DNA of 64,000 nucleotides from Candidatus Aminicenantes bacterium (lineage in GTDB: Bacteria > Acidobacteriota > Aminicenantia > Aminicenantales > Aminicenantaceae). The position numbers and the translations under genes are program-made. The DNA lies in NCBI GenBank assembly GCA_011773465.1, contig WVXO01000012.1:71561-135560 (forward strand), written 5' to 3'. The notes under the pieces were generated by a model that was given only the letters and a program-made list of their open reading frames with translations, searched no databases and was not told the DNA's origin. Each line of letters opens with the position of its first letter. Within the stretch, counting starts at the first letter, position 1. Of the stretch, positions 37,431 to 42,941 are shown one piece after another.

Positions 37431-37517
37431 TTCATCTATTCTTGATACTTATTTTATACGAATTTAATGAAAAATTCAAAAAAGAGATTAAGCATTTCCA
37501 ATTCCGTTATTAGAAAA

Positions 37518-37870
37518 GGATTTGGGAAATAGCCTGGCTTCCTTCAGATTTTTAACGCCGTTCTCCATTCTCTCTTCTCGCCGGCTGCCTAACTCACTCC
37601 TCTCAAACATACTCGCCTCCCGACTCTCAGAAAAAAATGGGGCCTGGCCCCATTTTTCGTGGCTTGGCGAAGGCTGTATGGTGAAAAACCGTGAGAAAGG
37701 CTGAGCGGGCGTTGCGAGGAGCGAAGCAACGAAGCAATCTCTTCAATAGATTTAGGAGAGCGAAGCCTTGATCCGAGTTGCTTTTGACTCGCTGGGGCAA
37801 AAGCAACGTGTTTTTGAGCCATATAGCCTGAGCCTTTCTTCAATGGTCGCTGCGGCTATTTCCCAAAACC
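37518..37870 (-). mobile_element. MITE-like non-coding element, copy A (353 bp) with 17-bp terminal inverted repeats
   Basis: TIRs are ggatttgggaaatagcc (37518-37534) and ggctatttcccaaaacc (37854-37870). The core 37662-37838 is nearly identical, in reverse orientation, to 41117-41294. It carries a GGGGCCTGGCCCC palindrome at 37631-37657. Confidence 0.55.
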
Positions 37871-38000
37871 TGTGACTTAGCAGTCAGCAAGCAAGGATCT
37901 GTAAATGTTTGTATTTGTCTCGGCTTGAAAATGGAAAAAAATAATGATAATTTAGCCCTAAAAAAATTTCTCGAAAATCCTCTCTAAAAAGTTTATTAGG

Positions 38001-40992: not shown

Positions 40993-41082
40993 TTGATACG
41001 AACTTTACCAAAAAAACAAAACCGAGTCTAGCAGAGCAAGCATCAAATTTCCTGGAGTGAGGAAGAAGTCATTCATTGTGCA

Positions 41083-41491
41083 GGAGTATTTGGGAATGGA
41101 TGAAGCGACCTTAAAAGAAAGGCTCAGGCAATATGGTTCAAAAACACGTTGCTTTTGCCCATGCGAGTCAAAAGCAACTCGGATCAAGGCTTCGCTCTCC
41201 TAAATCTATTGAAGAGATTGCTTCGTTGCTTCGCTCCTCGCAACGCCCGCTCAGCCTTTCTCACGGTTTTTTCACCATGCAGCCTTCGCCAAGCGAGGAA
41301 ATCCGACAGAGTCGGGCGGCGTGTATGTCTGAGCGGAGCGAGTTACGCAGCCGCAGAGAAGAGCGGAATTTGAATGGCATTGGGGTCAGACTTTGTCATT
41401 ATTTTGGGGAACGAGCTAGTTTTTATCATTTAGACATCATCTGCAGGAAAAGTCTGACCCCGATGGGAGCGAGGCCATTCTCAAATACTCC
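41083..41491 (+). mobile_element. MITE-like non-coding element, copy B (409 bp) with 17-bp terminal inverted repeats
   Basis: TIRs are ggagtatttgggaatgg (41083-41099) and ccattctcaaatactcc (41475-41491), with 1 mismatch. The core is 41117-41294. It carries a GGGGTCAGACTTT/AAAGTCTGACCCC hairpin module at 41382-41461. Confidence 0.55.
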
Positions 41492-41501
41492 CAGTGAATA
41501 A

Positions 41502-42941
41502 TCACGAATTTGGAGATGCTGTTTCTTTCTTTTCCGTTGCACTTTTTTTCGGAACATTTATATTATGTTTTTTTATCAATTTAAAAAGTCCCTGCCTGCT
41601 TAGGCCAATCTCTTCTGCAGTCCTAGCTCTGTTGGAATTCCATCGGGCTAAAGCCTGGTTTAAAAATCTTTTCTCGAATTCGGCTCTTGCCTGGAAGAAA
41701 TCATAGGAGGATGCTGTAAAGCATTCTCTATTAGGATTTATTTTTTGTGAAAGATATTCTTCTTTAATAAAATTATCTTCTCCAGCAAAAACTAAACATC
41801 TTTGAATTTCATTCTGAAGTTCTCTAACATTTCCCGGCCAAAAGTAGTTCATCAATAACTCCAAAGCTCTGGGCGAAAAATATGCCCTTTCGCGCTTCAT
41901 TTCAGCACAGTATTTCTCAAGAAAATGATTCAAGAAAAAAAGAAGATCTTCTCTTCTTTCTCTCAAAGGAGGAAGCTCAACGGCAATGATCTTAAGGCGA
42001 TAATACAAGTCTTCACGAAAATTGCCTCGTTCAATTTCTTTTTCAATATTCTTGTTGGTCGCACTTATAAACCTTACATTAATCAATCGTGGCTTATTTT
42101 CACCAATTCTTCTTATTTCTTTTTCCTGAAGGACACGAAGAAGCTTAGCCTGCAGATGAGGAGAAAGATCCCCTATTTCATCTAAGAAAAATGTCCCCCC
42201 ATCTGCTTCTTCAATCAATCCAGGTTTATCTTTCACGGCCCCGCTGAAGGCTCCTTTCACGTGTCCGAATAATTCGCTCTCCAGAAGAAACTCAGGTATA
42301 GCTCCACAATTCACAGCGACAAATCGCCCATTTCTTCTTGTCCCATTCTGATGAATGGCCTTTGCTACCAGCTCCTTTCCAGTACCACTCTCTCCCGATA
42401 TAAATACAGGGGCATCGCTATCTTTTACTCTGTCTATCAAATTGAGAATATATCGAAAAGTTTTGTTCTTTCCCCCCAGGAAAGGCTTTGCCAGTTCAAT
42501 GTTCTTTTCTCCAATTTCTTGGAACTCAACTCGATTCTTCAAAATCAAGTTGATTGGCTTTGAGATTGCAATCACAAATTCTAAATCCTCCCCTGTATAA
42601 GGCCCAAATCCATACTTCCGCTCGAGATATATTGCACCTGCAGGCCTATTCTCTATGAAAAGAGGAAGACAGAGTACATTCTTAAGGTTATTCGCGCTAT
42701 CTAATAAGACAGAATCTTCATTGAAATCGTTCATGATGATGGGTTGTTTTTCTTCAAGTGCTTTCTTTATTATCTCTGTATTGATTTTGTGGTTATCAGA
42801 TTGGACGATCTCTTGTGACTCTTTAAAAACAACTTTATTCATTTTATCCATCAATAGAACCATGATGCGTGCAGAAGGTATCTCTTCCATCATTAAATTC
42901 AGCAGCTTGGGAAGGAGTGAATAAGCTAAAGATAATTTCAT
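41502..42941 (-). CDS. Sigma-54-dependent transcriptional activator (GAF, AAA+, HTH)
   Basis: 479 aa with Walker A GESGTGKE, GAFSGA, ESELFGH and a C-terminal HTH (TAEEIGLSRQGL). The N-terminus is GAF-like rather than a receiver domain. Confidence 0.9.
   Translation of the reverse strand: MKLSLAYSLLPKLLNLMMEEIPSARIMVLLMDKMNKVVFKESQEIVQSDNHKINTEIIKKALEEKQPIIMNDFNEDSVLLDSANNLKNVLCLPLFIENRPAGAIYLERKYGFGPYTGEDLEFVIAISKPINLILKNRVEFQEIGEKNIELAKPFLGGKNKTFRYILNLIDRVKDSDAPVFISGESGTGKELVAKAIHQNGTRRNGRFVAVNCGAIPEFLLESELFGHVKGAFSGAVKDKPGLIEEADGGTFFLDEIGDLSPHLQAKLLRVLQEKEIRRIGENKPRLINVRFISATNKNIEKEIERGNFREDLYYRLKIIAVELPPLRERREDLLFFLNHFLEKYCAEMKRERAYFSPRALELLMNYFWPGNVRELQNEIQRCLVFAGEDNFIKEEYLSQKINPNRECFTASSYDFFQARAEFEKRFLNQALARWNSNRARTAEEIGLSRQGLFKLIKKHNINVPKKSATEKKETASPNS

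Follow-up and report, generated by a model that had tools for sequence, protein, structure and literature searches.

The window analysed here, a stretch of 64,000 nucleotides from a Candidatus Aminicenantes genome (contig C15:71561-135560 of genome G000), contains two related elements, A (37488-37924) and B (41036-41523). We concluded that A and B most probably arose by two independent and rather old insertions of a non-autonomous DNA transposon of composite make-up, a miniature inverted-repeat transposable element (MITE), with a folded module as cargo. The shell of this transposon consists of inverted repeats of about 24 nt, GTAAGCATCTCCATTTCCGT(G/T)AT, together with a subfamily-specific inner box, AGGTTTTGGGAAATAGC. 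Acting in trans, a transposase of the DDE type would cut at the termini, and its staggered 9-bp cut in the target would leave 9-bp target duplications. The cargo is a module of about 155 nt, one strand of which is predicted to fold into a three-way junction with a long closing stem P1, a hairpin P2 and a hairpin P3 with the loop GACUCGCUGGGGC, and the folded module is much older and more widespread than the shell. Once amplified, copies would erode through internal deletions, some of which remove the folded core and spare a single P1 arm; they would also receive insertions of other small palindromic repeats and exchange sequence with one another, as in the central 108 nt of A and B.

The genome is a metagenome-assembled genome (MAG) of 2.59 Mb in 74 contigs, 81% complete and with 41% G+C. 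C-numbers denote contigs of this genome (G000), L-numbers individual loci or stretches that were examined, G001-G006 the six congeners used for comparison, and G012, G419 and G007 examined genomes from three other genera of the class. A first-pass annotation of the window had described A and B as a non-coding, MITE-like family. That interpretation is supported by the present analysis, and the observation behind it is partly confirmed: the sequence facts hold, whereas the element boundaries do not.

The first-pass annotation ended each element at a pair of 17-bp terminal inverted repeats (TIRs). Inverted pairs of 17/18 nt are indeed present there (37517-37534/37854-37871 in A and 41083-41099/41475-41491 in B), each 94% complementary. 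They are not the element ends, however, as conservation runs about 30 nt past the left box and about 45-55 nt past the right box. When ten copies were aligned, conservation beyond the inner boxes reached GTAAGCAT... and stopped on both sides at G(T/G)AAGCATCTCCATTTCCGT(G/T)AT. The true terminus is GTAAGCATCTCCATTTCCGT(G/T)AT, about 24 nt long. The 17-bp repeats are internal, subterminal boxes, found at the same subterminal position in at least ten copies, and the left box of B is kept even in relatives without the rest of B. This second inverted box, AGGTTTTGGGAAATAGC, is specific to this subfamily, and the outer box alone is common to other subfamilies of the genome, such as the element at C20:16540-16855 and a 48-nt mini-element at C10:76814. 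In A (about 437 bp, plus strand from L arm to R arm) the left outer terminus is TTAAGCATTTCCAATTCCGTTATT, with the outer terminal box, the true TIR, at 37488-37511 (plus strand; family consensus GTAAGCATCTCCATTTCCGTKAT), and the right terminus is degenerate; the left inner box, AGGWTTTGGGAAATAGC, lies on the plus strand at 37517-37534, and its partner on the minus strand at 37854-37871. B (488 bp, minus strand) opens at 41036 with the outer terminus GCAAGCATCAAATTTCC and closes at 41523 with ACAGCATCTCCAAATTCGTGAT, read as its reverse complement.

Further copies of the family, which the first-pass annotation had proposed to look for, are present in the genome far above chance, with 82 BLAST matches. 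The terminus itself was matched 16, 28 and 89 times at up to 2, 3 and 4 mismatches, against 0, 7 and 30 times for the reversed pattern, which served as the chance control. In 12 further genomes the terminus had 1-47 matches each and the control had 0.

Evidence for transposition came from the flanks. We collected 53 distinct TIR pairs from this genome, 56 species-representative genome stretches and 99 metagenome stretches. The complete pairs span 66-531 bp overall and 231-389 bp in this genome, with outer TIRs of about 22-24 nt at both ends. The 9 nt on either side were identical at 9/9 positions in 19 pairs, at 8/9 in 3 and at 7/9 in 6, whereas control flanks shifted 12 nt outward never exceeded 6/9. 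None of the 53 pairs fits an 8-nt register. The joined flanks of four elements were also searched against the six congeners, and clean empty sites were found at three. The C58 element (259 bp) has ATTAACAAT on either side in this genome and a single ATTAACAAT in G006. The C32 element (C32:77762-78110, 349 bp) is flanked on either side by TCATGAAAA, a 9-mer of which G003 has a single copy, read as TAATGAAAA. At the C36 site both G001 and G002 lack the element. The combination of TIR pairs bounded by 9-bp duplications with filled and empty sites demonstrates that the family has transposed. Because TIRs occur together with a duplication of fixed length, we infer a cut-and-insert reaction of the DDE type.

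At the C36 site of G003 (L316, C112:15990-16470) a 53-nt remnant is found, in which the first five element bases, GGTAG, are followed by a GGGGCC palindrome. This remnant is an extreme in-place decay of a copy.

The sites of A and B were compared in the same relatives. A lies between a gene for a 259-amino-acid (aa) protein (minus strand, start 37430) and an amidohydrolase gene (start 38001), and it is missing to the nucleotide in G003 (L158) and G005 (L162), whose alignment with this genome breaks off after 37490 and begins again at 37925, with a single intervening nucleotide (gagatta-G-ttgaaaatg). These empty sites set A at 37491-37924, within 3 nt. In G002, G004 and G006 (L159 909-1083, L160 and L161) the site of A holds a different element of 176-216 nt with ..GACCTGACCCCGACTTG.. 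motifs; the intergenic site of A is an insertion hot spot. At the site of B, G003 has only the left ~30 nt of B and no A, G005 has an element with a different interior and no core, and G004 has a core interrupted by two GGGGCC palindromes. Since orthologous copies differ in their interiors, interiors change in place.

The conserved core was then analysed as a folding unit. It occupies 37662-37838 in A, with the plus strand as folding strand, and 41117-41294 in B, with the minus strand as folding strand; the covariance model built for it, R1, scores 144 and 141 bits, respectively. In an alignment of 38 core-bearing copies from this genome, the congeners, other genera and metagenomes, the module of about 155 nt has a three-way junction as its predicted consensus (-36.9 kcal/mol, RNAalifold), in which 95% of 1594 cells are paired. 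Compensatory change, which the first-pass annotation had suggested as a check, was evident: double-sided changes were found in 20 of 42 pairs, against 10.1 +/- 1.8 in shuffled alignments (0 of 500 reached 20), and compensatory cells numbered 88, against 20 in shuffles and 14-22 with slid partners. P3 is the clearest helix; other genera have an altogether different stem sequence (GUUGCUUUU/AAAAGCAAC versus GCGGGAUUU/AAAUCUCGC and others) around a nearly invariant loop, GACUCGCUGGGGC. Folding favours one strand, with 183 G·U cells versus 14 and 95.0% versus 84.4% of cells paired. In an alignment of 41 copies the consensus energy was -27.8 kcal/mol on the folding strand and -4.4 kcal/mol on the other, and the core of A alone folded at -73 kcal/mol on the plus strand (z = -5.0) and at -51.3 kcal/mol on the minus strand (z = -2.5). 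Selection probably maintains the fold. Among the hairpins that had been read in the core, GTTGCTTTTG/CAAAAGCAAC and CGTTGC/GCAACG are present, but GAAAGGCT...AGCCTTTC falls outside the conserved fold.

The core is distributed far more widely than the shell. When 151 genomes of the class, from 58 genera, were searched with R1, 35 genomes and 23 genera had it, with 12 matches in this genome and at least 20 in many others. Among core-bearing loci outside the genus, taken one per genome, the shell terminus was weakly matched (3 mismatches) in L267 and L270 and in none of the rest. In G012, G419 and G007 the repeat unit starts and stops at the P1 arms, and no GTAAGCAT shell is nearby. Because the core alone is the whole repeat unit in three other genera examined, the element in the window is a MITE shell that carries an older, independent and lineage-wide structured repeat as cargo. 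Public records with the repeat bear the label Candidatus Aminicenantes, and several congeners appear as 'uncultured Eubacteriales' (e.g. G005 contig CAYUXD010000002).

What the fold does can be explained in several ways. Our preferred guess is that it might be a cis-acting handle for the module's own spread or persistence, which would be transcribed in neighbouring mRNAs as a side effect. Another explanation, which we consider possible but doubtful, is that the core is a functional host RNA, either a cis-acting element of untranslated regions for mRNA stability, processing or translation, or a small RNA, with the MITE shell as its vehicle. The strand-specific fold, strongly stable on one strand only, with its conserved loops and covarying stems, would be expected of such an RNA. 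Orientation is also compatible with it: the downstream gene is co-directional with the folding strand in 34 of 50 cores, and the core of B lies in sense between two co-directional genes, for a sigma-54 activator and a 92-aa protein, on whose strand, the minus strand, it folds. Transcripts of MITEs with regulatory effects are known, for example from Correia and ERIC (PMC10969869). However, the orientation bias is modest and comes from crude calls of open reading frames (ORFs), and Rfam gave no match at gathering scores for the window and none at E up to 1 for A. Copies are gained and lost among congeners with no tie to particular genes. A scan of A for promoters and terminators gave one promoter-like site, for the 259-aa gene and outside the element, none within A, and no terminator call.

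The strand asymmetry, with its G·T pairs, would also be expected if the core were a REPIN-like unit that an HUH-type enzyme (RAYT or IS200/IS605-like) reads as single-stranded DNA, the shell being an unrelated second layer. In the three other genera the repeat unit consists of the core and nothing else, with ends that pair to give P1, as this explanation would predict. But no HUH gene flanked by the core was found in any locus examined, and a 155-nt unit with three helices is far more elaborate than the 20-40-nt hairpins of repetitive extragenic palindromic (REP) sequences, so we regard an HUH-type origin as rather unlikely. We give a similarly small chance to the idea that the core is an active nucleic-acid module of a new class, such as a structured RNA or single-stranded DNA copied by an unrecognised enzyme, or something ribozyme- or guide-like, which would have been captured here by an ordinary DDE-type MITE.

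The two cores in the window are more alike than the shells around them. Aligned in inverted orientation, A and B match over 186 nt at 92% and over a 74-nt arm at 78%. Global alignment of the cores reproduced the 5 substitutions and one 1-nt indel counted in the first-pass annotation, with arms ~78% identical, and gave an identical run of 108 nt at 37686-37793. This run includes a 45-nt module that replaces the usual P2 hairpin (37710-37754 in A, minus strand, with its counterpart at 41201-41245 in B); it contains the CGTTGC/GCAACG hairpin and is akin to a dispersed REP-like repeat, GAGATTGC..CGCTTCGCTCCTCGCAAYG. In an alignment of 24 copies the core outside P2 is the best-conserved part of every copy, and the complete 45-nt module occurs only in A, B and L151; in C33 and C72 an internal deletion has left only its start. 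A and B have no difference within the module despite shells of different subfamilies. B belongs to a sister subfamily shared with C24:17660-18140, and C24, the other B-type shell, has an ordinary P2 hairpin. B also retains P1 variants of the B lineage (GGCAATATGGTT), as in the G004 orthologue. Because the identical 108-nt tract sits inside shells that are about 22% diverged, gene conversion is inferred, and on the simplest reading a central conversion tract would have been copied into B from an A-type donor. The first-pass annotation had offered a structured RNA or recent gene conversion as alternative reasons for the conserved core. Both find support here, the former from the predicted strand-specific fold with its covariation. 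The near-identity of the A and B cores would result from family-wide constraint and exchange between copies, which add up.

The remaining copies show how the family is built and how it decays. Ten full elements of 231-389 bp form a size series with the same ends and unlike interiors. The best-kept copy, C28:25745-26133 (389 bp), has an outer box, spacer, inner box, core and a long L arm that ends in inner and outer boxes, and the shorter copies (231-349 bp) are internal deletions. Copies without the core (C32, C58 and two on C65) retain one P1 arm (..CCGAAGGCT-AAA-TCTTCAATGG..), which is the expected outcome if the stem-loop was excised. The elements had also been called modular, and the palindrome GGGGCCTGGCCCC of A and the hairpin GGGGTCAGACTTT of B are present as described; the modules are, however, largely nested insertions of other small repeat families.

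Three such nested repeats were recognised: a 27-nt palindrome in A, an 80-nt GGGGTCAGAC element in B, and the REP-like unit in P2. The palindrome in A (37631-37657, no strand, AAAAAAATGGGGCCTGGCCCCATTTTT) belongs to a separate high-copy repeat family, AAAAAATGGGGCCWGGCCCCATTTTT, and is not found at that position in B or C28. Its core GGGGCCWGGCCCC occurs 92 times in the 2.6-Mb genome, with a reversed control of 0, and it resembles a terminator acting in both directions or a mobile hairpin of the REP type. Loci of this palindrome besides A include C33:82605-82698, C16:1353-1425 and C52:8050-8102, often as tandem pairs, and it has also entered other repeats; in C24, L036 and L151, for example, it sits within the P3 hairpin of the core. 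The nested element of B (41382-41461, no strand) has GGGGTCAGACTTT inverted termini and belongs to another repeat family; it occupies the same place in C24 and is missing from A-type shells. In a Nitrospiraceae MAG (G338) two DDE_Tnp_1 insertion sequences (L335 152-1938 and L342 276-1353) are bounded by GGGGTCAGGTCTT, and these may represent the parent family of the GGGGTCAGACTTT-ended MITE type nested in B. The REP-like repeat, GAGATTGC(Y)(K)CGTCGCTTCGCTCCTCGCAATGACA, was found at 15 loci genome-wide, usually as inverted doublets around a short A-rich spacer; the loci include C10:20634, C10:41099, C15:11271, C33:47997, C35:11436 and C46:40087. The pseudo-peptide 'EEIASLLRSSQ' of the first-pass annotation comes from this repeat.

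Neither element codes for protein, as had been noted before. The only ORFs in them are of 84 and 122 aa, and interiors of copies differ by indels that are not multiples of three. Because the 1-nt indel changes the frame between A and B, the 'peptides' they share are non-coding, and a protein-coding reading of them was ruled out.

Several points weigh against the proposal of a trans-mobilised MITE with a folded cargo. A and B themselves have no recognisable target duplication; the right end of A is degenerate and relatives without B keep its left ~30 nt, so that the history of the two is less clean than that of the C58, C32 and C36 elements. For the fold, many of the G·U cells are inherited and lie at about six fixed positions, which leaves few independent events, and P1 also forms the inverted termini of the unit in other genera, so that covariation in P1 may partly reflect co-evolving protein-binding ends. 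Finally, no autonomous partner with the family termini, for which the first-pass annotation had suggested a search, was found in the genome itself, the 12 other TIR-bearing genomes, the 56 genome stretches, the 99 metagenome stretches, viral contigs or plasmids, among the matches listed and mostly in MAGs, which often lose insertion sequences. Because no partner was found, mobilisation in trans by a DDE enzyme rests on analogy.

The surroundings of the termini gave the same result. No insertion-sequence-sized pair or recurrent ORF was seen next to about 155 TIR-bearing stretches, Pfam families beside unpaired ends were those of housekeeping genes only, and two terminus matches on viral contigs lie in apparent coding sequence and are probably due to chance. 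Insertion sequences of the DDE_Tnp_1 family occur in 12 of 19 TIR-bearing genomes; they were rejected as the partner, having other ends and in no case the family terminus. In the literature, the terminus sequence did not occur in a relevant context, and none of the papers listed links Aminicenantes with MITEs.

It seems improbable to us that the shell arose by deletion from an IS66-family insertion sequence and is moved by TnpC, although its termini invite the comparison. They begin GTAAGC, genuine IS66 elements of the phylum begin GTAAGCG (L052, L053 and L060 as full pairs; L056 and L064 at contig starts), and one real IS66 end, that of L053, agrees with that of the MITE at 14 of 20 positions. 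As the shell begins GTAAGCA, it has only the first six bases in common with GTAAGCG. The duplications decide against membership: IS66 elements make 8-bp duplications (L052, GTGCCTAT), as has also been described for ISDge4 of this family (PMC12898284), but the present family has 9 bp every time and no 8-nt register. We searched for TnpC and TnpB with Pfam models in the genome itself, 40 relatives, 300 genomes of the phylum and the 12 other TIR-bearing genomes. DDE_Tnp_IS66 was absent from 19 of 19 TIR-bearing genomes; of the 301 genomes sampled from the phylum, 44 had it; and the MITE terminus (GTAAGCATCTCC ends) was on none of 31 IS66 loci. IS66 membership was therefore rejected on the 8- versus 9-bp duplication and the lack of TnpC, and the resemblance is one of termini only.

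The terminus extends beyond the phylum. The same 22-nt terminus was found in pairs around unrelated interiors in Thermodesulfovibrionales and Nitrospiraceae MAGs, and MAGs labelled Bacillota and Actinomycetota also carry it, although MAG labels in NCBI can be wrong. Such MITE-sized elements with unrelated interiors are L110 1049-1281, L127 2332-2539, L132 3562-3766, L118 117-312 and L120 715-831, from MAGs labelled Thermodesulfovibrionales, Nitrospiraceae, Bacillota or unclassified, and the L110 element has a perfect 9-bp duplication. Because the interiors differ, these are not the same element. As far as the sequences go, they imply that there may be a widespread transposase that makes strict 9-bp duplications and is not yet linked to these 22-nt ends.

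The idea that a composite transposon, with A and B as its arms, imported the amidohydrolase, antiporter and small-protein genes, which the inverted copies at the borders of the gene block, with outer termini facing outwards 4032 bp apart, might suggest, can safely be dismissed: the genes for the 259-aa protein, the amidohydrolase, the Na+/H+ antiporter, the 92-aa protein and the GAF/sigma-54 activator (Pfam) stand in the same order and with the same neighbours in G002-G006 with or without A or B, A and most of B are missing from G003, no duplication surrounds the 4-kb unit, and the two shells are about 22% diverged. Because synteny of the intervening genes does not depend on the elements, A and B do not form a cassette, and the composite-transposon reading is refuted by synteny in the relatives.

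As separate MITE insertions, the elements still alter the genes beside them. A splits a divergent intergenic region, and the same region is 136 bp long in G003. The right terminus of B (41502-41523, minus strand) serves as the 3' end of the GAF/sigma-54 activator gene, supplying its final six codons and stop (TASPNS*); the ORF (41502-42941) ends ...KKETASPNS. In G003, which is without the right part of B, the tail of the activator translates by hand as ...KSKNAL*. The C32 copy inserted on a start codon: its duplication TCATGAAAA contains ATG, and the GGAGG of its terminus lies 9 nt upstream of the retained ATG, a placement that would be suited to a ribosome-binding site. Because three contigs of the genome end within copies (C33:194967-195085, C25:56049-56278 and C38:22159-22314), the family also breaks the MAG assembly.

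These elements make up a visible share of the intergenic space of Aminicenantes, and they matter for annotation in that they break MAG assemblies, create spurious ORFs and rewrite gene ends. They provide a clean and testable bacterial case of a MITE with a cargo subject to structural constraint of its own. Occurring across phyla together with 9-bp duplications, the 22-nt end offers a search image for an unrecognised or unlinked transposase, and the predicted three-way junction, with its invariant loops and its occurrence in 23 genera, is a candidate for a new class of structured nucleic acid that can now be modelled and searched for.

Compared with known systems, the family is of a known kind. 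MITEs are typically shorter than 500 bp, have TIRs and flanking direct repeats, are non-coding, and are mobilised in trans by a related autonomous insertion sequence (PMC10969869). The present family, as the first-pass annotation had proposed, agrees in length, TIRs, exact 9-bp target duplications and non-coding sequence without a transposase gene in or adjoining it, and its copies are present or absent among congeners. Three traits are unusual for a MITE: it has no identifiable parent, its terminus crosses phyla with strict 9-bp duplications, and it carries a constrained cargo found in 23 of 58 genera. The size-variable prokaryotic MITEs Chunjie of Geobacter uraniireducens and QMITE2 of Coxiella (PMC10969869) are similar, as far as features alone are compared, in being shorter than 500 bp and intergenic, with TIRs, direct repeats in younger copies, deletion variants with the same ends, partial copies without TIRs or direct repeats, and a stable predicted fold. 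Unlike in these, the interior here is a separate, wider-spread three-way-junction module with invariant loops rather than just a TIR-driven hairpin, and the terminus is common to many unrelated interiors and several phyla, with no parent insertion sequence known.

The BOX, RUP and SPRITE clusters of pneumococci (PMC10969869) resemble the family in being modular, with small repeats inserted into one another and terminator-like palindromes. BOX is without proven transposition termini, whereas the shell here has exact 9-bp duplications and empty sites. Correia elements duplicate TA, in contrast to the 9-bp duplication of this family. Like Correia (CREE/NEMIS, Neisseria) and ERIC (enterobacteria), the family is high-copy, intergenic and TIR-bounded, and both join neighbouring transcripts and can supply regulatory signals (PMC10969869), as the GGAG in the C32 terminus, 9 nt 5' of a start codon, illustrates here. 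Their folds, however, are simple long hairpins made by the TIRs. The IS66 family has termini that likewise begin GTAAGC and a duplication of similar length, but the present family has 9 instead of 8 bp, differs from position 7 onward, and has no TnpC in the TIR-bearing genomes tested (n = 19).

REP/REPIN sequences are hairpins or hairpin doublets of 20-40 nt that are mobilised by RAYT and have no TIRs or target duplications. No RAYT associated with the element was found; the core-only units of other genera were not searched for RAYT. The core-only form of those genera resembles REP/REPIN in being a palindromic, strand-asymmetric, high-copy intergenic unit, but the core is about 155 nt long with three helices, and in its shell form it is bounded by TIRs and 9-bp duplications.

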